Shown piece after piece: positions 6,579-17,955 of a DNA stretch of 25,625 nucleotides; the stretch's first letter is position 1, and each line of letters starts with the position of its first letter. Location of the stretch: positions 1 to 25,625 of IMG/VR virus record IMGVR_UViG_3300023180_000361; one strand, given 5' to 3'. The notes under the pieces are model-generated. The model did no database searches. It saw only the letters and a program-made list of their open reading frames with translations, and had not been told where the DNA came from. The position numbers and the translations under genes are program-made. Source of the DNA: a virus. Its lineage: Duplodnaviria; Caudoviricetes.

Positions 6579-6665
6579 TTACCAGTGTTTTTCATCCCCA
6601 ACGAATCCGCTGATGGCGCACACGAAGAGGAGCGTGATTAGGGTTAATGCGATGAGAGTGCTCAT
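6579..6665 (-). CDS. 28-aa single-pass membrane peptide (MSTLIALTLITLLFVCAISGFVGDEKHW)
   Basis: Translated by hand; below the ORF-track size cutoff. ATGA-coupled to the upstream gene and ends 2 nt before the erf ATG. Confidence 0.65.
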   Translation of the reverse strand: MSTLIALTLITLLFVCAISGFVGDEKHW

Positions 6666-6796
6666 TTACGTTTTCTGTTGATGGCGGACTGGAGCGTGTC
6701 AGCGACCCAGTCCCGAATGGTGACGCCCTTCTGAACCGCCAGCAGTTTGATCTGCTGGTGAAGAACGGAGGGGATTTGAATGTTTTTGATTTTCAT
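6662..6796 (-). CDS. 44-aa ribbon-helix-helix regulator (Cro-equivalent candidate)
   Basis: Translated by hand: MKIKNIQIPSVLHQQIKLLAVQKGVTIRDWVADTLQSAINRKRK. Beta strand, helix, G-x-T turn, helix pattern. Confidence 0.8.
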   Translation of the reverse strand: MKIKNIQIPSVLHQQIKLLAVQKGVTIRDWVADTLQSAINRKRK

Positions 6797-6804
6797 AGAT
6801 GCAT

Positions 6805-6818
6805 AATATGCGCCTATT
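6805..6818. promoter_or_regulatory. Operator/promoter repeat copy AATATGCGCCTATT
   Basis: Exact 14-bp copy of 7051-7064, just upstream of the 44-aa RHH gene. Confidence 0.65.
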
Positions 6819-7044
6819 AAGCGCAAATTTCAGCCCGAGTCTTTTGTGATAATGATTGCCATTTTACTTTGGCCAGGTTGAGGACATGCAGAACGAGTGG
6901 CTTGTTGACCGAGATTCCGTTGTTTATGAGTCCTTCGACGATTGACTGCTTAGTCTGACCCCATGAGCAATTGAACTCATAGGCATGAACGGCCTCTGCC
7001 GCTACGTTGTTGAGTATTGCCTCTCTGGCTTCCGTGTTTTCCAT
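6817..7044 (-). CDS. Hypothetical early protein (75 aa)
   Basis: First ORF of the leftward early operon, directly after the promoter at 7051-7079. Confidence 0.75.
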   Translation of the reverse strand: MENTEAREAILNNVAAEAVHAYEFNCSWGQTKQSIVEGLINNGISVNKPLVLHVLNLAKVKWQSLSQKTRAEICA

Positions 7045-7104
7045 GCGCCCAATATGCGCCTATTGTGCGCCTAGGTCAATAGAAAATTAAAATTATTTTT
7101 CTAT
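7044..7104 (-). promoter_or_regulatory. Leftward early promoter with tandem operator repeats
   Basis: TTGACC (7079-7074), 17-bp spacer, CATATT (7056-7051), then 6 nt to the ATG. TGCGCC occurs at 7044, 7055 and 7066. Inverted repeat ATAGAAAA-N10-TTTTCTAT at 7079-7104. Confidence 0.7.
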
Positions 7105-7121
7105 CTTTTTCTTTTCGTTCG

Positions 7122-7364
7122 ATGATGTATGGTCTGAGCGTGAGTTTACCTGTTAGAGCAAAAAACAAAGCCAATTTCAATGCCTGGATTGATACCAGTG
7201 CGAAGGAGGCTCTTTCGCGCCTGGCAAAGAAATCTCGCAGATCCCGCACCCAGGTTCTGGAGCTGTTGATTCTGGCGGAAGCAAAGCGTCAGATTGCTCA
7301 ATCACCCGACTCAGAATACGCTGCGGAGTTGACTGCTCTTCTCGAGCAATTCGGCGCAGAGTAG
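7122..7364 (+). CDS. Ribbon-helix-helix (CopG/Arc-like) repressor candidate
   Basis: KANFNAWIDTSAKEALSRLAKKSRRSRTQVLELLI fits the RHH pattern. It is the only convincing plus-strand gene and is divergent from the early operon. Start may be GTG at 7140. Confidence 0.8.
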   Translation: MMYGLSVSLPVRAKNKANFNAWIDTSAKEALSRLAKKSRRSRTQVLELLILAEAKRQIAQSPDSEYAAELTALLEQFGAE

Positions 7365-7449
7365 CGATGAGTGACGGGTGAACCTTCATACTGTTCATGT
7401 GAACAGCAACCGTAGGACAAAAACCGTCCAACCCCTTATTTGATCGCAT
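7177..7449 (-). CDS. Possible third RHH protein, antisense-overlapping the repressor
   Basis: NSMKVHPSLIATLRRIAREEQSTPQRILSRVIEQ has an RHH-like pattern. The start overlaps the end of the upstream ORF; alternative ATG at 7398. Confidence 0.4.
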   Translation of the reverse strand: MRSNKGLDGFCPTVAVHMNSMKVHPSLIATLRRIAREEQSTPQRILSRVIEQSDALLPPESTAPEPGCGICEISLPGAKEPPSHWYQSRH

Positions 7450-7897
7450 ATTTTTTTATCAACGATTCGATCGCATGCAGTTTGTCCCGGCCAATGTATC
7501 GGGCGTTTCTGGGGTGATTTGGCATGGGCCGGGTGATCTCCTCTGCGTGAGCCCAGCCCAGGATCTCGATTTCCGGGAACCCGGTAGCCAGAACGAATTT
7601 GTAGCCGGGTTTGAGTTCTTTGGGGGATGCAATCAGCTTGTGAGCTTTGGCAGACCATTTGACTTCAATATCCGGAGGCACGTCCACAGTCGAGATTGCG
7701 CCAAACTGTGCGCCGTTTCCTATAGCAATGTTCATGAGTAGTTCGGCCAGGAAGGAGGCCTGGCGGTTTCGCATCGCACCGGAGAGTGGGTGCGTGTTGA
7801 ACATGGGGTTTGTTTTGGATCGCCTGGTGAGCGCAGGTGTTTCCCACACCTCGAGCCAGACGGTTGTGATGGTTGAGTGGTTAAACTGTAGTTTCAT
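7436..7897 (-). CDS. Hypothetical protein, possible PD-(D/E)XK nuclease-like fold
   Basis: FLAELL...VDVPPDIEVKW...FVLATG...EILGW. Start uncertain (TTG 7942 or ATG 7897). Confidence 0.6.
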   Translation of the reverse strand: MKLQFNHSTITTVWLEVWETPALTRRSKTNPMFNTHPLSGAMRNRQASFLAELLMNIAIGNGAQFGAISTVDVPPDIEVKWSAKAHKLIASPKELKPGYKFVLATGFPEIEILGWAHAEEITRPMPNHPRNARYIGRDKLHAIESLIKKYAIK

Positions 7898-7938
7898 GAG
7901 GTGCCTGACCCACCCATCGGGCCAGGCACCTGATCCTG

Positions 7939-8997
7939 TCAAGCCAGGATTTTAATTTCCACGGGTTTTTGATCGATCAAGTCAGCGTAGTATCGTGAGG
8001 TGATCTCCGGGGAGTGATGACCCAGATACTTTTGGGCAGCAAACAACCCCAGCTGGGTCGCTACGTTTGCGCCAAAATATTTACGAAGTTCATGGACAGA
8101 TTTGGATCCGCTGAAACCAGCTGCCCGAATGATTTTGGCGACAACGTCAGAATGGTCTCTCTGACGTGCCGTCATGGGGCCGGGCAGTATGTGGACTCGC
8201 TCCTCCTCAAACGACTTGAGGTGGTCGATCTGGTCTTTGGAAAGGGGGATGAGGCGCGACCTGCCACTTTTGGTGCTGAAATCCTCCTCCTCCTGAACCA
8301 TGAGACCGTGAGGAGTGATCCATGACCAGCGAGCAGCTGCGGCTTCTCCGCGCCGCAGACCGCAGTGCAGCATGAGCCAATAAGCCAGGTATGCGCCTGG
8401 ATCCGACTCTTTGAGTGCCTCGCACCGTTGGATGACCTTGAGCATTTTGTCCTTTTTATCGGAGACGGTGTATTGTTTCTGCCTGACTGGCAGTGGCTTG
8501 ACTGCTTTGAAACCGTCTACGCACTCGGGCAGTGACCTGGAATACGTGTCCACCATCCGGTCGCTGAACAGCTGTTTGACTGATCGAAGGATTGTGTTTG
8601 CCGTGATCGATGCCGTGGTTCTCGCCGAGTGCGCCGCACCATCGAGACGTAAACGGAAGAATGCGTTTGCGTTATCCTTTGTGAACACCTCCTCTACGGG
8701 GTGATCCCACGATAGGTCCAGTGTTTTCAGGAACATGGCGACGAACCCGCGCACCCCGCTGATGGTCGCCCGGCGGATGTGGAAGGCGTTTTTGGAGAAC
8801 TCATCGACCAGGTAGCGAACGCGCCAGACGGAGTCTGACTGCTGGAGGAGGAGGGTCAATTTCTGCTCGGCAATCTTTTTTGCCGCTTTTTTGCAGCGCA
8901 CCCCCGTTGAGACCGTCTGGACTGTACCCAAAACGGTGGTTTTCGCGAAATAGGTTTTTCCGCGCTTAAACAGATTTATTTTACACTCAAGCTTCAT
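7939..8997 (-). CDS. int: Tyrosine recombinase / phage integrase
   Basis: Catalytic residues in GLRRGE (R), TKSG (K), HELRKY (HxxR), LGH (H) and TSRYY (Y); adjacent to a tRNA 3' fragment. Confidence 0.95.
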   Translation of the reverse strand: MKLECKINLFKRGKTYFAKTTVLGTVQTVSTGVRCKKAAKKIAEQKLTLLLQQSDSVWRVRYLVDEFSKNAFHIRRATISGVRGFVAMFLKTLDLSWDHPVEEVFTKDNANAFFRLRLDGAAHSARTTASITANTILRSVKQLFSDRMVDTYSRSLPECVDGFKAVKPLPVRQKQYTVSDKKDKMLKVIQRCEALKESDPGAYLAYWLMLHCGLRRGEAAAARWSWITPHGLMVQEEEDFSTKSGRSRLIPLSKDQIDHLKSFEEERVHILPGPMTARQRDHSDVVAKIIRAAGFSGSKSVHELRKYFGANVATQLGLFAAQKYLGHHSPEITSRYYADLIDQKPVEIKILA

Positions 8998-9043
8998 GAC
9001 TAAGTCTTTCTTACTCAGCGAGAAGCAGATAGTGTATTAGTAA

Positions 9044-9091
9044 TGGTACACCCGTAGGGAGTCGAACCCCAAACCTCCTGATCCGTAGTCA
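9044..9091 (-). mobile_element. attP core: 3' half of tRNA-Arg(ACG)
   Basis: Minus strand TGA-CTACGGA-TCAGG-AGGTT-TGGGG-TTCGACT-CCCTA-CGGGTGT-A-CCA gives anticodon loop, variable loop, T arm, acceptor 3' strand and CCA. No D arm or 5' acceptor strand. Phage genes lie on both sides. Confidence 0.9.
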
Positions 9092-9123
9092 CATAAAGGT
9101 TTTCTGCCTCTCACTGAGATAAT

Positions 9124-9152
9124 ATATTAGTATGAAACTATAGAATAGTCAA
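9124..9152 (-). promoter_or_regulatory. Sigma70-type promoter reading across attP into int
   Basis: TTGACT (9152-9147), 17-bp spacer, TAATAT (9129-9124). Confidence 0.7.
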
Positions 9153-9219
9153 CTCCAGCGGGGTTTGGTGGAAACGCGTGATAATGCATCAGTATGATTA
9201 TGACTGGTTTGAGCGGGGC

Positions 9220-9268
9220 AAAAAAAATAGAGCGTCTGGGGTCCTGCAAAACCACGGTAGACGCTCTA
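9220..9268 (-). terminator. Second terminator-like stem-loop
   Basis: 10-bp perfect inverted repeat TAGAGCGTCT/AGACGCTCTA (9228-9237 / 9259-9268), 21-nt loop, followed by T8 on the minus strand. Confidence 0.6.
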
Positions 9269-9332
9269 GAAAAGTAATAGGCTGGACACTTATTACGGGA
9301 GAATGCTTACACAGTCAGAACTGGGATTCAAC

Positions 9333-9357
9333 AAAAAAAGCACCCGGATGGGTGCTT
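9333..9357 (-). terminator. Rho-independent terminator of the late operon
   Basis: AAGCACCC-N4-GGGTGCTT hairpin running into a T7 tract on the minus strand, about 40 nt after the last late gene. Confidence 0.85.
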
Positions 9358-9396
9358 GAGTTGCTGCTGGGCAAAGTATCTTTTTACCGATGAACC

Positions 9397-9600
9397 TCAA
9401 TCTTCCTCGTCCTTTGCCATCGCGCCTGAGATGGCACCAAAAATCCCCAGTGCTTCATGCTGGTTATTAAAGATATGTTTTCCATAGTAGCGACCGTCCG
9501 CTTTGGCTTGTTCGTTCAGGTATGCTGTTTGCTCGGCCTGGGAAAGCTTTTTGAACTCTTCCATGGAAATCTCTCGGAATGCTGGTTTATCTTCACTCAT
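9397..9600 (-). CDS. Small acidic hypothetical protein
   Basis: 67 aa, ATGA-coupled to the giant protein gene; last gene before the terminator. Confidence 0.75.
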   Translation of the reverse strand: MSEDKPAFREISMEEFKKLSQAEQTAYLNEQAKADGRYYGKHIFNNQHEALGIFGAISGAMAKDEED

Positions 9601-12600
9601 TGACTACCTCTTTTATTATCTCCTTTCGAAGCTACTTTCTTTTTGGGCTTTTTCAATGGTTTTTTCTTTGCCTTCTTCGCCAAAGGAATCGCCGACACCA
9701 GTTTCTTGAGGTCGCTCTTTATTGCTTTGGCCTCTTTGTCTTCCAGCAAACCGTCCAACGCCATGACATCGATGGGTTCAGACAGGCGCACCAGGAGGGC
9801 GTCTCTGCGCGATTTCAGCATTGGCCCTTCAGTCTCGGATGCTATTCGTCTGGACCTTCCAACAACATCCAGCCTCTCGTCCACTTTGCCTGGAGACCTC
9901 TTTGATGCCTTTTCCCTGGCAGCATCAATTCTGGACTTCCCTAAAGCAAACACTGCTCGAGCGAGAGTCTCGTTTGTCTCGAATACAGCATTGCGACCTG
10001 CTTCATCAACAGGGCGATCAAATGTCTCAATCACAATATCTGTGATGTCGTATTGAGGGACATCATATTTGTCACTGATGGACAGAATGGTGTCACGGTT
10101 TTCGAGGATAGCTTCCCGCATGTTCCCATCATAGAACTGATCGCCGATGAACATTCCTTCGGGAGTTTCAGTGAACCCCGTCAGAAACGTGTTCCCTTCG
10201 GCGTCTTTTAATGCTGCCAGATCTTCATAAAAAGCCTTCTTCTGAGCTGCGTCCAGTTTGCGTGTGTCGAACTGAATGGCAGTATTCATACCCGTTCCAG
10301 CAGCTCTTTCTTCGAGTGTTGCCGGGCGTATGATGTTACCGCCATCCTGATCCCAGGCTAGGGACAGAGCGTTCATAATCGTTTTTGTTTGCGATGGATC
10401 GCCTCTCAGTCCGATGACGATGTTTGGTGCAACATTTGCTGACCCCCCTTCTGAGTAACCACCCTGTCCAGTCCTGACCACGTTAATGAGTGCGTTACCC
10501 CCAGCCACGTCGATCGCGGCTTGAAGCTCTTCGGCTAACCCGTCCGCAACAGCTTCTGTCATCGCCTCAACACCCAGGTCTGCCTCGAGCGACTGAATCG
10601 CTTTCGCCTCTACGCTCGTTCCCATTGACGTTACCTCAATCGGTATTGTCTGATCTGCAACTGAATTAAATGTGTCGTTGATCAGTTCAATTGCACGGGC
10701 AGATTTCTCGTCCATGTTTGTTGCCCAGTCTTCCCCTGCAAACATCTTTTTGAGGGTTTCGGTAAACGTGTTGAGTCTGTCACCAAACAGTTCCAAATTT
10801 CGATTCGACAACAGCGGGTTGTCACGCTTTTCAACTGCCCACAAAATTTCTTGAGCGTTCCTAGCCTTCAGCTTTTCTTTGCCATAAAAGCCAGCCAGAC
10901 CCTGCAAATTCATTTCATCGGCAATCAATCCGTCGATCGTTTGCTGGGCATCGTAAACGGGTCCGGATCCACCCGGGGAAAGCCCCCCCTCGTCAGGTCG
11001 CTTATAATACGACCACTCAGTATCAGGATCAAACCCTTCAGCTTTGCGATCCTCCCATGACAATTTGTTCCAGTCTCTTTTTCCATCGATCTGAAATGCG
11101 CGAGCATACTGGTAGTCCAACTCCATGATACTAGTCGCCGGGCGGGTTTTCTGTGTGCCTTTGTCCGTTGTCACCATGATAGGAGACTCTTTCAGGGCTT
11201 TTTCGAAAAGAGGATCGTCGATGCGCCGTCTCTCACGTTGCTCAGGAACCGACCACTGGAACGGTTTGTCGCTTCCAGACTTTCTGCCTCGCTTGATTAT
11301 GTATGCCGGGTGAGCATAGCCTTTGGATGCCATATCCCACATGTCCACGGTAGCGAGTCCATCGAGAAATGTCTGGGTTTTCTCAGCTATCTCCTGAGTC
11401 ATCTCCCCGGATTTATGCAGTCCCAACGTCTGAGCGACACGTTTCGTCAGACGTTTGACCTCTGTCTGATCGCCATCGGCCCGAGCCATATCAATGAGGT
11501 CTGCCATGGCATTCAAATAAAAGTTGCGAACTTTATCATCCGCACCAACTGCATCTTCTGACAACACATCAAAGTGCTTCCCGTTATGCCAGTCGTTTGC
11601 CGTTTTCTGTGCGCCCCTCTGAGCGGTACCCATTCCCAGCTTGTATCCAGCGGGGGTGCCGAAAGGCGACATGAAGCTGCGAACTGATTTAGACGCATTA
11701 CTGCTGACAGATGATCGCGGAGACCCTAAAGCAATCAATCGGATGATGAGGTCAGCAGTGTCGTATTGGCTTCGACCTACTGGTCGGATGCTCTCGGCGA
11801 CATTCATTCCAACCTGAGCCATGTCCTCGTAGAACCCAGCACTTCGCTTTGCGAATTCGGGGTCTTCTTTGCGAACAGCAGCAATGCGATCGACCTGCTG
11901 CTTCACAATGTTCAAAACCTCCTTATAACTTTTGGGCACCCCAGCAATATTCTGATTAACGACACCCAGTCGAGCTGGTAGAGCAACGGAGTCCTTGACA
12001 GGATTTTTTGGGTAATCCGCTATGGAGAGGCCAACTTGTTTTTTCGCTTTATCCCCAACGTCCATTTTGCGGACGGAGGATTCACTGATAACCAGTGAGT
12101 CCAGATCAGAGGATTGTCCAGGTTCAAAAAGAAAACGATCCTCGCTTGAGAAAACTGGGTTCTGCACGAAAACCGTATTACCATAAACGATCGCCTTATC
12201 GCCTCCCACAACAGGAGAACCCGTAGCTCTGTCATAGAAATAACTGTGTCTCCTGGGATTCATAGCGACCTGCGTCCACGCTGATATGTCAGAGGGGATA
12301 TTGGTCGTATGAACGTATTTGCCTTCTACAGTGGCAATCGTTGACTTTGGAGCACCCTTTGAAATTTTCTCGGCAGCAACCTCATTGATTGTGAACACAG
12401 GCGATTCAACAGTCGCTATATTCGTATATCCAATAATTTTGCCAGCTCTCCCAGCCTCCTTTCCAGCCCACTTCTCATGCACAGACACAGGAAAAACCGG
12501 GTCTCCAGACTTGATGCTTCTTTCATACGCAGGAATGTCCAATCGCAAACCCACGTCAACGCCTTCAGGAAAGGCGACATTTTCTTTCACGTTGCCGACT

Positions 12601-15600
12601 TTGCTTGAGCTTATGTACTCTCGAATCTTGTCGAGCGTTACCAGATTGCTCATGGATGGAGGCTGAACCCTCTTGATCACTGCCCCCTCTCCAGTGTCTA
12701 ACGCACCCATCCCTCCAGGTTCATACCTGGGACCGGGGACAACTCTGGTTGTTGTGATGCCTTTGTTGACTGTTAATGGATATGGTTCCTGATACTTCAC
12801 AGGGTCGATCATTTCATACCCGTATTTTCCGGTCTCTGGAAACGCAAACTTTGAGTCGTCAGTGACGAAGTGCTTATCGACATCGGCATCGAACTCCTCT
12901 TTTGTTGCATAAAACTTTCGGGGACCGATAGTGACTTCCCCTACAACTCGAGCATCCGATCCTACTCCTGTTGTACGAATTATTTTTAAGCGTCTGCCTA
13001 CTTGAGAATCCAACCGAGTATTTGTGCGAGTCTCGATAGTCTTTTCTCCGTTGGCTATTAAGTCAGCAAACGGAACGCCATCCTCATTGCGAACATTGAA
13101 TCCTCCAATTTCACCAGGTTCAAAGTTCTCCTGGATCCGCCGATACGCATTCCTGTTCAGCGGCATCCGCTCCAACTGAGCTGGGGAAACGTCATTGATC
13201 GCATCGAGACGACGACCACGAATCAGATTGTCCGCGCGATCTGGATTCAGGTGCTCGAGCAGTATGCGCTGACGTTGTGCGTTGTTTCGAAACTGTATGT
13301 CTTTCTTTTTAAATCCCAGGAAGGCCGAAAGTACGTTGGCTTTCTTCCTGGCGATAGCTGGGTCACCCAACCCCTTCAGAACTCCCTCGGATGAATCCGG
13401 GTTCGCCATGTTGTTGAGGTATTGAACCAGGTCACGATCAAACGCTGCCCGGGTCGCCTGTGGATCTGCTTCCTGTGACCAGAGGTTCGTGATAGCTTTT
13501 CGCCTCTGCGGATCCTGCATGATTCGCACATATTTCTCAGAGAGATGCCCCAGATCGACAGTGTTGTAGAGCAGGTTTCCTGCTTTTGAAATGTAGAGAC
13601 CGAACGGTATCGAGGTTCGCAGACTGGATCCGATCTTCGATGAATACTCCGCACCAGTCTTTCCTTTTGGGACCAGGCGAGCGTTGTAGTCGATCACTAT
13701 CGGTTCCCCCCTGCGAATGCTCTCGTTCACCCGCTCCATCGTTTCGATCAGAGATGGCGGAAACAACCATCGGGGTGCGTTTCGGATTTTCGCCAGAGCA
13801 GCATCAGGGATGTAGTCTCCTGATATAACTTCAGTCTCTGGATCCCAGTTCATGGGAACCTTGTTGCCCCATCCAGCTTCCGGACGATAGTCCTGATCCT
13901 GAAAAACGGTGCGAAGGAAATTTTTCCTTAACCGCTCCTTTTTCCTCAGTTCCTTCTGGTTCTTCTCGATGACGAGTTTGCCACGGGCATCGAACTGGTA
14001 GTTGCCATCCTCATCAAGCTTCGCGATGAGCAGGTTTTTGGGGACCGACTTCGCATCCAGGCTCGATGTGTCTGTGATCGTTCCACTGTCAGACTCCGAC
14101 ACCTCCCCGCGAATTAATTTGCCGTCATCGTCCAGCTTCAAACGCTGCTGAAACTTGATAAGGTTGTTGATCTCTGCGGTCAGCTGGTTGTCGCCGTAGT
14201 CAACAGCTTTACCGGAACGATCCCTGAAAGTCTGACTCAGGACTTTAGGGTTTCCAGTATACCCCATGAAGGTCGCCAGAACATTGGCCAATCGCCCGAG
14301 GGGTTTGGCTACCTTGTTTGCATCAGTTTTGAGGTCGGCCCGGGTCAGATACAATGGGTCTTTGTCCGTCAGAAAAGACTCCCATATATCGGACATGATC
14401 TCGTCTTTGATGCGAGCATGCTTCCAGAATTGAGGATCCGCTTCAGGTGTGCCTGTTTGGTAGTTGTCAGCGAGCCGTTCATCATACGCACGTAGAAGCA
14501 TCTCATCGGACTGCTCAAAACGGCTCATGTAGTCTGAGTAGAATTTGTCCAGATCCTCCGATGTAAACTTTCGATTGATGTATTCCTGGATCGGCCTGAA
14601 GTAGTCCTGGAGCACGTCCAACCTTCCTAGGGCGTGAATACCCTCATGGATGATCGTGGTTGGTGTCATCTCATCGACATTGATCAGTGCGATCGGGCGT
14701 TTGCCTCCGTTGCGCGTATTCAAAAACTGGACACCACGCTTCAGACTGGGGATTTTATCCGCCGCAGAGTTGCTCGCGATCTTCTCGGCGTACTCGGTCA
14801 CGTTGTCCAGGTTGATATTATCGGCCAAACCTTCCGAACGAAGGTACTCAAAGAGAGTGTCAAATGACGATGAATCGGTGTAAACGAAGTTGACATCAGC
14901 TTCCCCTGTCGAAGCCAAAACCATCTGCTGCGCGAACCTCTCAAATACAGCCCAACGGGCGATCTGAGTATCGTCAAACCCCCTGTCTTTGATCTTCTGC
15001 TGGATCTCGGGTGTCTGTTTCAGCAACCAGTTGTTCGCTGCGGAGGCGACCTTCTGTTTATTGCCCCAAACTGCCTGGTCGTATGCTCCACCTCCGAACG
15101 CGATCATCCCGGATCCGATGATGTTCTGAGCAATCATTTCCTCGTCCATCGTGAGTGCAGATAGCCCTGCACCCGAAAGGGCACCCCCGGTTGCTCGAGA
15201 CATCCCGGCCAACATCACCTTTGTCGGTGACGAGAGGATTCGCAGTGCGGGAGATAGCCACGGGTAATCCGTGAAGACACCATGCCCCAGCTTCTCGGCT
15301 AGTTTGCGATTCTTCGGATCCACAAAGGTGTCTCGCGACATCGACAGGAACACGTTCTCATCCGATTTACGTGCGATCGCCCGAGATAGCCCAGACATCA
15401 TGTCGCTGACACGATTGACCGCGCCTCGAAACGCACTCAATGAACGTGCAGGATCCCCTACGAACGGGAGATCCTTTGCCTTATTCGTGACCTGCTCCAC
15501 TTCTTCCAGAGCTTTCCCGACCTTCGCGGTTCCAGATCCAGTTGCCCCAGCTGCTTCGCTGGTAGCTGATCTTATCATACTGGATCCGCTCTTCTTCATC

Positions 15601-16577
15601 GCACCTTTTGCGATAGCTGCCCCCAGGCCTTCACCTCCGAAATGGTAACTCGCTAGATTGGCAGTCGCCGGGTTAACCATGGAGAGAATTTGTGTCTCCA
15701 GTTCGCCAGCCGTTGAGACATCTTCTTCTGTGAAACCGGGTGACTGCTTCCAGTATCCCCCGGGCGCACCTGGCCCCGCAGAGAATCCGGTTGAGACAAA
15801 CTCGTTTGGTCTGGTTGCGCCAGACGCAACGAAAGATCCCACAACATCCCCGAGGATCGACGCTTCGCCTTCCTGGTATTTCACCTGATCTGCTAGCAGT
15901 TTATTCAGTGACCTGAATTTATTCCTGGCAGTCGTTTTTTCTGCCTCACTGAACTGCCCCCAGGTTTTCCGTTTCCGGCGACTCGCGCCAAACTTTGAAT
16001 ACCCGGCGGACTCACTCTCGTATCTGTCCAATGATTGAGCAAACCCAATGGATGCTCCCAAAACACCTAGTTCACTCGCACCACGTAGCGCACCTTCAGC
16101 GAGGGACGCAGAGATGCTTTGGTTGTCAGTATCCTGATCCTGGACCCAGTATCCCCCGGGCGCACCCGGCCCGGCGGAAACACCTGTTGGCACGAATCGA
16201 CCTTTAGGTGTGGCAGCAAACTTTGCCGTGTCCAATACACTCGTCGCATAATCCTTCACGATCGGGATCGCGGAGGAGATCATGCCGTCGATGACTTTGT
16301 ATGGATCGAACCCCTTCTCGATTGAGTATTCCAGGAATGTGTCAACCTGCTCGTCGGAGTATGCCCGGCCAGGGTTCTGCCTCATGGACTGATACAGACG
16401 TTCCGGATCGCCTGTCGAGAACCGATCGAACATGTCTCTCTCAGACAACACAACGTCATCGTCAGGCTCGACGTTTGATGCCGACATAATCTCTTCGATT
16501 GATATGTCGAATGAGTTCGTATCCTCCTCCTCGGAGGTCATAATGTCATCGATGTCGAGTGTTATATTATCTGCCAT
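9597..16577 (-). CDS. Giant internal virion / DNA-ejection polyvalent protein (~2,326 aa)
   Basis: Position of T7 gp16 / P22 gp16-like genes. Contains Gly/Ala-rich hydrophobic helices, HEGIH zincin motif (14634-14648), ASCH motif GEKTIETR (13026-13049) and an SP..N / K..NF / TVD.W / QE.LW domain. Start placed at MADNIT (16577). Confidence 0.85.
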   Translation of the reverse strand: MADNITLDIDDIMTSEEEDTNSFDISIEEIMSASNVEPDDDVVLSERDMFDRFSTGDPERLYQSMRQNPGRAYSDEQVDTFLEYSIEKGFDPYKVIDGMISSAIPIVKDYATSVLDTAKFAATPKGRFVPTGVSAGPGAPGGYWVQDQDTDNQSISASLAEGALRGASELGVLGASIGFAQSLDRYESESAGYSKFGASRRKRKTWGQFSEAEKTTARNKFRSLNKLLADQVKYQEGEASILGDVVGSFVASGATRPNEFVSTGFSAGPGAPGGYWKQSPGFTEEDVSTAGELETQILSMVNPATANLASYHFGGEGLGAAIAKGAMKKSGSSMIRSATSEAAGATGSGTAKVGKALEEVEQVTNKAKDLPFVGDPARSLSAFRGAVNRVSDMMSGLSRAIARKSDENVFLSMSRDTFVDPKNRKLAEKLGHGVFTDYPWLSPALRILSSPTKVMLAGMSRATGGALSGAGLSALTMDEEMIAQNIIGSGMIAFGGGAYDQAVWGNKQKVASAANNWLLKQTPEIQQKIKDRGFDDTQIARWAVFERFAQQMVLASTGEADVNFVYTDSSSFDTLFEYLRSEGLADNINLDNVTEYAEKIASNSAADKIPSLKRGVQFLNTRNGGKRPIALINVDEMTPTTIIHEGIHALGRLDVLQDYFRPIQEYINRKFTSEDLDKFYSDYMSRFEQSDEMLLRAYDERLADNYQTGTPEADPQFWKHARIKDEIMSDIWESFLTDKDPLYLTRADLKTDANKVAKPLGRLANVLATFMGYTGNPKVLSQTFRDRSGKAVDYGDNQLTAEINNLIKFQQRLKLDDDGKLIRGEVSESDSGTITDTSSLDAKSVPKNLLIAKLDEDGNYQFDARGKLVIEKNQKELRKKERLRKNFLRTVFQDQDYRPEAGWGNKVPMNWDPETEVISGDYIPDAALAKIRNAPRWLFPPSLIETMERVNESIRRGEPIVIDYNARLVPKGKTGAEYSSKIGSSLRTSIPFGLYISKAGNLLYNTVDLGHLSEKYVRIMQDPQRRKAITNLWSQEADPQATRAAFDRDLVQYLNNMANPDSSEGVLKGLGDPAIARKKANVLSAFLGFKKKDIQFRNNAQRQRILLEHLNPDRADNLIRGRRLDAINDVSPAQLERMPLNRNAYRRIQENFEPGEIGGFNVRNEDGVPFADLIANGEKTIETRTNTRLDSQVGRRLKIIRTTGVGSDARVVGEVTIGPRKFYATKEEFDADVDKHFVTDDSKFAFPETGKYGYEMIDPVKYQEPYPLTVNKGITTTRVVPGPRYEPGGMGALDTGEGAVIKRVQPPSMSNLVTLDKIREYISSSKVGNVKENVAFPEGVDVGLRLDIPAYERSIKSGDPVFPVSVHEKWAGKEAGRAGKIIGYTNIATVESPVFTINEVAAEKISKGAPKSTIATVEGKYVHTTNIPSDISAWTQVAMNPRRHSYFYDRATGSPVVGGDKAIVYGNTVFVQNPVFSSEDRFLFEPGQSSDLDSLVISESSVRKMDVGDKAKKQVGLSIADYPKNPVKDSVALPARLGVVNQNIAGVPKSYKEVLNIVKQQVDRIAAVRKEDPEFAKRSAGFYEDMAQVGMNVAESIRPVGRSQYDTADLIIRLIALGSPRSSVSSNASKSVRSFMSPFGTPAGYKLGMGTAQRGAQKTANDWHNGKHFDVLSEDAVGADDKVRNFYLNAMADLIDMARADGDQTEVKRLTKRVAQTLGLHKSGEMTQEIAEKTQTFLDGLATVDMWDMASKGYAHPAYIIKRGRKSGSDKPFQWSVPEQRERRRIDDPLFEKALKESPIMVTTDKGTQKTRPATSIMELDYQYARAFQIDGKRDWNKLSWEDRKAEGFDPDTEWSYYKRPDEGGLSPGGSGPVYDAQQTIDGLIADEMNLQGLAGFYGKEKLKARNAQEILWAVEKRDNPLLSNRNLELFGDRLNTFTETLKKMFAGEDWATNMDEKSARAIELINDTFNSVADQTIPIEVTSMGTSVEAKAIQSLEADLGVEAMTEAVADGLAEELQAAIDVAGGNALINVVRTGQGGYSEGGSANVAPNIVIGLRGDPSQTKTIMNALSLAWDQDGGNIIRPATLEERAAGTGMNTAIQFDTRKLDAAQKKAFYEDLAALKDAEGNTFLTGFTETPEGMFIGDQFYDGNMREAILENRDTILSISDKYDVPQYDITDIVIETFDRPVDEAGRNAVFETNETLARAVFALGKSRIDAAREKASKRSPGKVDERLDVVGRSRRIASETEGPMLKSRRDALLVRLSEPIDVMALDGLLEDKEAKAIKSDLKKLVSAIPLAKKAKKKPLKKPKKKVASKGDNKRGSQ
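15744..16196 (-). repeat. Internal duplicated peptide FV[PS]TG[VF]SAGPGAPGGYW[VK]Q
   Basis: 21-bp identical DNA ccagtatcccccgggcgcacc at 15750-15770 and 16146-16166, 396 bp apart. Confidence 0.9.
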
Positions 16578-17955
16578 TAGGAGTCCTGTATTCAGAAAGA
16601 GGTTTCGCACGTGTCTGCATGAATGCTCCGTTGTCCCAGATAAACACTCGTTCACCTGGTCTCACGATGCCACTGCGGATGTCCTGATAGAGGTTTTTGG
16701 ATGCTGCGTCTGCTGATCGGTAAACCATCGTCGGAGCGTTTGCGTATGCCTTCAGACGCTCGGAATACGTGTGAACTCTGTAACCATCGGAAGCCAGCCT
16801 ATCGAGCTTGTTGCGGATGCCCCGAGCGATCAGTGCTTGAGTCTGCGCCATCACCAGTTCATTTGCCTCCGGTGACTGCGATAGACTAGCGACAGTGCGT
16901 TTGTAGTTCTCGATGTCCTGGTCCGTCAAAACTCCGACCTCACCGAAAACGCCGCGAGCGAGCTTAGGAATAAGCTTTTGAACAGACGCTTTAAAATCAG
17001 ACGTTGATGCATCCTGTTGAGCCAGGCTCATCAGCGAGTCAACCAATGGTCCGATGCCCTTCCCTGTGGGTATATTGAGCGCATCCAATGCTCTGGAAGT
17101 GTCCTCGAGAAGTTCCATCGCGAGCATGGCATCCTCCACTGACTCGGTGTCGTTTTGGGACAACGCTTTTCCTGTGTATGATGCATCCAGCTTCGCATAA
17201 ATGTTCTTGTTGCTCGGATCGTTCACAAACTCGCGAGATCTCAGCATCTGACGCTCTTCAGGTGACATGTTGGACATGATTTCGCGTTCACCCTTCACGC
17301 CTTGAATAGCTCTCTCAGCTTTCTCGTAATCCTGAACAGACAAATCATACCCACTGGGTTCAATACCCAGTTTGCCCCACGTGATACCAGACTTTGACAG
17401 TTCGCCATTGATCTTGTTCCACCTCTTAAAGCCCATGATGCGGTCACGACCGGATGGTGTGTTTGGATCCGCATCGATGCCCCGTTCTGCCATCTGTTCT
17501 GCGAGCACTGCGAGATCTTTGCGACTCGCTTCTTTTCTCAGAAAGTCAACAGTGCCTTTTCGGTCTGCGTAGTTGGCAGCATAAACAGAATGGATGTTAT
17601 TCATGGACGCAGCGACATCCGGATGAACGACCTTTGCCCGGTATTCTGAAAACAGGTCTGCGTATGCGTTGACATCATCTGGATCCAGATCTTTGGCCTT
17701 CTTCACAAACTCGGAGAGAGCTATCTGGGATCCGTGCCGCTCCACAGCTTCGCGCTTTGACACCTCACGCTCCAACTCCATCTTCCGCTTGAGGCTTTGG
17801 ACCTGTAGTTGAGCCGCCTCATCGGCGACCTTAGCTCGAGCCTCGCTCTTCGCGTCGAGGTCCGCTTGACGTTCCTCCTGTCGCCGCGCCCGGGCATCGG
17901 CCCGGAGTTGTGCGGTCAGGTTTATCCCACTGTTAAATCCACTCGCAAAGCTCAT
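16567..17955 (-). CDS. Internal virion / ejection protein
   Basis: MSFASGFNSG N-terminus, charged coiled-coil region, LARGVFGEVGVLTDQD segment; middle of three internal-protein genes. Confidence 0.7.
   Translation of the reverse strand: MSFASGFNSGINLTAQLRADARARRQEERQADLDAKSEARAKVADEAAQLQVQSLKRKMELEREVSKREAVERHGSQIALSEFVKKAKDLDPDDVNAYADLFSEYRAKVVHPDVAASMNNIHSVYAANYADRKGTVDFLRKEASRKDLAVLAEQMAERGIDADPNTPSGRDRIMGFKRWNKINGELSKSGITWGKLGIEPSGYDLSVQDYEKAERAIQGVKGEREIMSNMSPEERQMLRSREFVNDPSNKNIYAKLDASYTGKALSQNDTESVEDAMLAMELLEDTSRALDALNIPTGKGIGPLVDSLMSLAQQDASTSDFKASVQKLIPKLARGVFGEVGVLTDQDIENYKRTVASLSQSPEANELVMAQTQALIARGIRNKLDRLASDGYRVHTYSERLKAYANAPTMVYRSADAASKNLYQDIRSGIVRPGERVFIWDNGAFMQTRAKPLSEYRTPNGR

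Follow-up and report, generated by a model that had tools for sequence, protein, structure and literature searches.

We find that the leader of the integrase gene (int) in this phage is a real feature that has been selected as RNA, and from modelled folds we consider it probable that it is an RNA switch of two states, which acts on translation and is set by recombination. The window analysed here, that is, the whole stretch of 25,625 nucleotides, is a 25.6-kb phage record. An attP core and three complementary segments in front of int (arm A, arm B and segment C) can be read directly from it, as can the recurrence of these segments with different sequences in relatives and an integrated layout of the locus in host contigs. 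A sequence-only reading of the window had proposed an RNA structure that spans attP and is confined to the unintegrated phage, with an integration-state switch on int as one possible role. The structure and its confinement are supported, and the idea of a switch stands; the mechanism differs, in that a hairpin between B and C over the start codon had been overlooked. This predicted hairpin suggests an effect on translation initiation rather than, in the first place, RNase III.

The attP core (9044..9091, minus strand) comprises the 3' portion of a tRNA-Arg(ACG), running from the anticodon stem through CCA, and lies 46 nt ahead of a tyrosine integrase gene (7939..8997, minus strand; 352 aa; PF00589, E 9e-12; phrog_1; start consistent with homologues), whose product has an N-terminus that we take to resemble an arm-binding domain. 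With virion-type genes on its upstream side and genes for recombination and replication on its downstream side (Pfam and PHROG matches), the site is in its unintegrated attP form. Consistent with the earlier assignment of the fragment to tRNA-Arg(ACG), a 47-nt pattern of the core (one degenerate position) matched 12 genome records, 11 of which are Verrucomicrobiota with a whole tRNA-Arg(ACG) gene at the pattern (including Pedosphaera sp. and SCGC AAA164-E04); the hosts of this phage family are likely Verrucomicrobia. The twelfth record (L038) bears the label Candidatus Microthrix, but its leader is the phage one seen in L007, and it probably represents a phage contig that was misbinned. Host identity starts 3 nt before the anticodon loop (9082..9088, minus strand), which is the predicted 7-bp crossover region, as in the anticodon-centred site class A, where, in the available text of the source, a tRNA 3' fragment in attP restores the gene upon integration (PMC4383910). 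The window has what marks this class, namely a tyrosine integrase adjoining the site and a piece of tRNA 3' sequence, identical to that of the host, that starts at the anticodon stem, and as far as that available text goes it is no different at the DNA level (PMC4383910); the attP/tRNA arrangement is, at that level, ordinary. Integrated forms with a restored whole tRNA were found in the relatives L054, L031, L035, L040 and L088, the window phage itself not being among them. ARAGORN called no tRNA in the window, and AU- or U-rich tracts come after CCA. Two viral contigs (L018 and L024) carry a whole tRNA-Arg(ACG) near 1471-1547 with flanks that are not host-like. One metatranscriptome contig (X4, 89 nt) runs through 9013-9091 and then into 10 letters resembling the host tRNA D arm, as at an integrated junction, but it falls short of a 31-letter bridging rule, may be an assembly chimera and was not used as evidence; positions 9110-9217 are uncovered by the assembled metatranscriptome contigs listed (13 runs), an absence that permits no inference.

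A predicted sigma-70-type promoter, TTGACT-17-TAATAT (9124..9152, minus strand), reads across attP into int. It is present as the sequence-only reading had it, at 9152-9124, and matches the consensus at 9 of 12 positions, which on its own is weak and at the level of chance (4 sites in the scan vs 2.8 expected from shuffles). Its conservation is a separate matter: TTGAC lies 115-190 nt upstream of the ATG in all 24 attP leaders vs 8% of 320 control windows, and the element is invariant in a 19-row alignment (A2). Further upstream, a 10-bp hairpin with a T run behind it (9228..9268, minus strand; inverted repeat I6, not called by the terminator scan) is terminator-like and may insulate the int promoter from upstream genes, and the scan itself placed an intrinsic-terminator-like hairpin behind the upstream gene block (9338..9357, minus strand). 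Three 16-nt direct repeats (75-88% alike) flank the core, at 9027-9042 just past CCA, at 9117-9132 on the -10 box and at 9179-9194 as a dyad upstream of the -35 box, the last conserved in close relatives, unlike the drifted -10 copy; they are candidate arm-type or repressor sites. Group-specific short dyads or direct repeats are found on or beside TTGAC in L007, L011, L013, L014, L047 and L058, and such elements at the -35 box are possible operators controlling the int promoter.

Arm A (9103..9118, minus strand), with which the attP transcript is predicted to start, is the strand complementary to arm B (9014..9029, minus strand). On the int-sense strand the two form a 16-bp helix (9118-9103 with 9029-9014) of 14 Watson-Crick and two G-U pairs that ends 16 nt before the int ATG, and in this the earlier description was reproduced. 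Folding 9125-9000, as that reading had suggested, gave -44.1 kcal/mol (z -4.78), and 0 of 200 shuffles were as good. The inner helices that it had listed were likewise all present in the window's minimum-free-energy structure: a phage octamer (9095..9102, minus strand; variable among relatives) paired with tRNA positions 9078-9071, the T arm (9070-9067 with 9059-9056), and 9052-9047 with 9036-9031. Their frequencies among 2000 sampled structures were ~1.0, ~0.5 and 0.92-0.97, respectively, with the native anticodon stem at ~0.2. All four helices occurred jointly in 0.48-0.50 of the structures, so the four-way junction that had been put forward is about half populated, and it is not kept in relatives, where 13 of 20 leaders have the T arm at 0.5 or higher and 8 of 20 the fourth helix. 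A search of window positions 8900-9650 against Rfam 15 returned three weak matches, all under the gathering score and none on the leader, and four related loci returned 0 matches. Neither A:B nor B:C is followed by a U tract, and intrinsic termination through either helix was rejected.

When the trailer after CCA is folded without the 5' arm, an 18-bp hairpin (7+5+6; -19.7 kcal/mol) encloses the AUG, and 0 of 100 shuffles were equally stable or equally closed. The downstream strand is segment C (8982..9005, minus strand), which spans the int AUG (8997-8995); the predicted pairs are 9019-9013 with 9005-8999, 9026-9022 with 8995-8991, and 9036-9031 with 8987-8982. The last of these involves a second switching hexamer in this lineage (9031..9036, minus strand), which pairs with the tRNA 3' acceptor strand (9052-9047) when the tRNA 5' half is absent, as in attP, and with coding sequence (0.99 in the modelled integrated form) once the acceptor stem forms. 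Because B is the common strand of both helices, A:B and B:C are mutually exclusive. Opening the region from -12 to +10 around the AUG, a ribosome footprint that is an assumption for leaders with no clear Shine-Dalgarno motif, is predicted to cost 4.4 kcal/mol in the attP form of the window vs 14.5 kcal/mol for the trailer alone and likewise for host tRNA plus trailer; with A shuffled (30 shuffles) the cost is 13.4 +/- 1.0 kcal/mol. For the window's other 25 ORF starts, the median is 5.4 and only one reaches 14.5. Predicted exclusive helices that share a strand, with one over the initiation region, are what a translational switch acting in cis consists of.

Protein and locus searches yielded 24 distinct attP leaders in eight groups, whose integrases share 43-100% identity with the query (duplicates and loci short of upstream DNA were dropped from the locus table). 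The groups are akin in the tree, from which L088 was left out for its stop at codon 2, and form three sister pairs and two single branches; five tRNA targets could be read from sequence, namely Arg(ACG), Arg(TCG), Lys(CTT), a tRNA with a CAT anticodon, and Leu(TAG). Groups with integrases 43-73% identical to the query have almost wholly different arm sequences. Across 21 leaders (not counting L044 and L045, which nearly duplicate the window, or L046, in which the core is replaced), the A:B duplex was better than 1000 shuffles in every case (p at most 0.004), and in every case the start region was cheaper to open with A than without it. The opening cost in the attP form was below that in the host-tRNA-fronted form in 16 of 16 leaders modelled. 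From its two G-U pairs the sequence-only reading had argued for selection on RNA, and this retention of the helix in 21/21 leaders bears it out, as does strand-neutral scoring of the eight group representatives, which gave 14 G-U against 0 A-C mismatches (p 6e-5), or 14 against 2 when the search was extended into the promoter (p 0.002). The sense duplex was stabler than the antisense duplex in all eight representatives.

The position of A is also informative. Counted from the start of the -35 box, its onset lies 33-39 nt downstream in 18 of 23 leaders (a helix table leaving out L044), and of the five outlying positions four come from a single group whose helices the neutral scoring extended into the promoter, whereas the distance from A to the core (anticodon loop) ranges over 4-14 nt and that from B to CCA over 7-20 nt. 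Since A is set by the promoter and not by the core, an RNA helix at the 5' end of the transcript fits better than protein sites phased to the crossover. The A:B helices are 10-19 bp long and start near the predicted 5' end, several being only 10-12 bp, and in every trailer fold B has a partner at or just ahead of the AUG, with occlusion by B:C above that of 100 shuffles (p<0.05) in 13 of 21 leaders. The balance is not the same in all leaders: in L056 the two states are 0.4 kcal/mol apart, shuffling of A was without effect in L051 and L056, and at equilibrium, with the start placed 35 nt past the -35 position, A:B falls under 0.5 in 6 of 20 leaders (L002 also left out of the 20-leader tests), a value that shifts with the assumed start. 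In nascent transcripts ending just past B, A:B is at least 0.52 in 20 of 20 leaders, and in the closely balanced leaders, such as L011 and L013, the co-transcriptional order (A, B, then C) would favour A:B. Covariation in A:B among the alignable groups 1-5 is thin (one two-sided, seven one-sided and six breaking changes, with three gaps), and so is that in B:C over all groups, peripheral helices included (five two-sided, 14 one-sided and 21 breaking changes, with four gaps). In L046 (560-710), promoter, A, B and C are retained and most of the tRNA core is swapped for unrelated sequence; this locus may have a new target, stem from recombination at a secondary site, or be an artefact of assembly.

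The integrated counterpart is represented in host DNA by L054, in which a host promoter and a whole tRNA-Arg are followed by a trailer with B:C and an integrase gene that is intact (350 aa), with no A and an opening cost of 11.0. In L031, L040 and L035 this layout precedes what remains of int (11.0, 9.1 and 7.5, respectively), and L088 has it behind tRNA-Ser, with int stopped at codon 2 and a cost of only 4.8. A clade of short integrases (~295 aa) that do not have the N-terminal 50-60 residues provides a comparison: the T-arm motif is found in 0 of 15 of its loci, and its start regions are open (2.2-6.9 in 10 of 10 rows). The members of this clade (L008-L010, L057, L059-L065 and L082-L085) are set among phage genes, carry no tRNA fragment, and perhaps show this integrase family employed in a resolvase-like way.

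One could thus envision the following sequence of events, in which the transcript start, the folds in vivo and the effect on translation are those predicted by the models. Upon infection or excision, transcription from the promoter would run through A, then the tRNA half, then B and finally C, and in the free phage A would take B before C emerges, leaving the AUG open for integrase to be made. Crossover in the anticodon loop would strand the promoter, together with A, at the distant prophage end, and would bring the host tRNA promoter and the tRNA 5' half ahead of B. In the integrated form, the tRNA would fold by itself and probably be trimmed off, and B would lie over the AUG, so that little integrase would be produced under read-through from the host tRNA promoter. 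Insertion into the host tRNA gene would probably turn integrase production off by itself. The likely purpose of such an arrangement is to supply integrase upon infection and after excision while keeping the lysogen stable despite an int gene behind a strongly transcribed tRNA gene; the supply of integrase for excision on induction is not accounted for by the model.

Alternatively, the A:B helix might act mainly as a nuclease signal or shield, with B:C secondary, which we think unlikely. RNase III could cut A:B and so remove B, freeing or destabilising the int mRNA, or the helix could hide the tRNA half from 3'-processing enzymes that would cut the leader. Helices of 10-19 bp near the predicted 5' end and the AU- or U-rich tracts after CCA would suit them, and lambda sib, in the part of its account available, is a precedent for position-dependent control of int (PMC5300877). 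However, nuclease action leaves unexplained the second partner that B finds at the AUG in all groups and in integrated loci. Several of the A:B helices, at 10-12 bp, are also short substrates for RNase III. Nuclease action could also operate alongside a translational switch. It is improbable, in our judgment, that the repeats are DNA sites for arm-type binding by the integrase, for an accessory protein or for a repressor, with RNA pairing as a by-product. Integrases with an arm-binding domain require arm sites, as is established for the lambda family, and this counts for such sites here, as do the partly direct repetition of A and C, the three 16-nt direct repeats flanking the core in the window, and the slightly greater likeness of A arms between groups than between shuffles (best 8-mer identity 5.25 of 8 vs 5.01, p 0.04). 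Against DNA sites stand the strand-specific excess of G-U over A-C mismatches, the greater stability of the sense duplex in 8/8 representatives, the positioning of A by the promoter instead of the core, and arms almost wholly different among groups whose integrases are 43-73% identical to the query. A folded single-stranded DNA form of attP (-18.6 sense vs -13.1 antisense) was considered and set aside, as it leaves C and the fixed distance to the promoter unexplained.

That the attP transcript is a small RNA that mimics tRNA, built on the four-way junction and with a function of its own, had been offered by the sequence-only reading as a second role, and to us it seems very improbable. The window's minimum-free-energy structure does contain four helices, and all groups keep the tRNA half enclosed; however, the junction is populated at only about 50% and is not conserved among relatives, no U tract or terminator after B would end the RNA before it continues into int, L046 retains A, B and C with most of the tRNA core replaced, and no Rfam family matched. 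There is also only a very small chance that the swap of promoters alone matters, in the style of Pcirc of ICEclc, and that the helices arise by chance. Such a swap has an established precedent, within the accessible text of that report (PMC5812530), and the promoter here is conserved. Chance helices are hard to reconcile with A:B duplexes at p at most 0.004 in 21/21 leaders and with the G-U bias, and integration sets a host tRNA promoter before int (as in L054). With that promoter in place, losing the phage promoter would not silence int unless transcription stops at the end of the tRNA.

Control of int by integration state is known. In lambda, integration separates sib from int, and sib acts via RNase III; IS10 and IS50, with their protection against read-through transcripts, are a further parallel. 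As described in the available portion of the source, sib is a cis element that controls int (PMC5300877), and the likeness to the window lies in a cis element across att that ties int expression to integration state. In that same portion sib is downstream of int, negative and active at the mRNA level, whereas the helix in the window sits 5' of the ATG, and A is predicted to be positive and to act on initiation through exclusive helices (PMC5300877). In ICEclc, per the accessible text, integration is at a tRNA 3' end, intB13 lies beside the att site, and excision brings the outward-facing promoter Pcirc before it (PMC5812530). The window is alike in its tRNA 3'-end target, in having int by the att site, and in a promoter that faces int from beyond the crossover, predicted here from consensus and conservation; ICEclc is, in the same text, a promoter swap only, whereas the incoming end in the window adds an RNA strand predicted to undo a start-codon hairpin (PMC5812530). 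A leader hairpin over the initiation region of a recombinase mRNA is described, in the available parts of both reports, for IS200, where it conceals the initiation region in the tnpA 5'UTR (PMC4513863), and for ISPpu9, where the antisense activator Asr9 has been proposed as a complementary opener of the hairpin in the tnp 5'UTR (PMC8450116), and in this they resemble the window. The opener there is a separate small RNA or absent, going by those parts, whereas the one in the window would be in cis, attached and removed by the enzyme's own recombination (PMC4513863, PMC8450116). No anti-sequester strand supplied across attP was found in full-text literature searched by title and opening of the abstract, a body of work with older and subscription papers mostly outside its scope, and an earlier description may exist.

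We lean, by somewhat better than even chances, toward a general form of this reading, a recombination-set riboswitch in which recombination swaps the 5' strand of the int mRNA and flips the start codon between open and buried, and which is portable, having been rebuilt from new sequences across at least five tRNA targets. In many prophages and islands int directly follows a tRNA gene and is exposed to host transcription, which could set off excision when it is not wanted. If the reading is true, it may be a common and overlooked escape from the host tRNA promoter for such elements, a protein-free solution in which mRNA folding reads the integration state; any element that integrates into a tRNA gene could be screened for it, and it would offer genome engineering a compact part for self-limiting integrase expression.

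Wider searches give some context for these loci. The relatives search found no match among 50,697 GenBank phages, and nothing turned up in two additional viral scans that used P0021 and P0014. Among 401 genomes of the host order, 76 had a match at E 1e-12 or better, and beyond G001's own short remnant these were distant integrases only (best 5.5e-43), with start-region opening costs that vary widely and start codons that are uncertain. Two distant integrases (L144 and L116) stand right behind whole tRNA genes, and the start region of L144 is very closed (21.9 kcal/mol at a putative start codon), which is a lead for generality. A duplex between host upstream DNA and the trailer was also considered; it consists mostly of promoter sequence and was scored with no null, and we regard it as uninformative.

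Some features of the surrounding phage genes may also be recorded. An ORF at 7436-7942 overlaps the int stop codon, has no Pfam or PHROG match at 0.001, and is probably co-transcribed with int. Beyond it, a divergent pair in window positions 6662-7364 looks like an RHH-based immunity switch: an RHH-like ORF (7122-7364, plus strand; weak RHH_1 match) faces a promoter at 7079-7051, GGCGCA-containing sites are repeated near it at ~7041-7075 and 6805-6820, and a second small RHH-like ORF lies at 6662-6826. On the other side of the site, a 2352-aa ORF (9597-16655) with one PF25735 (L5 gp82-like) domain at residues 1401-1496 probably encodes an internal virion protein.
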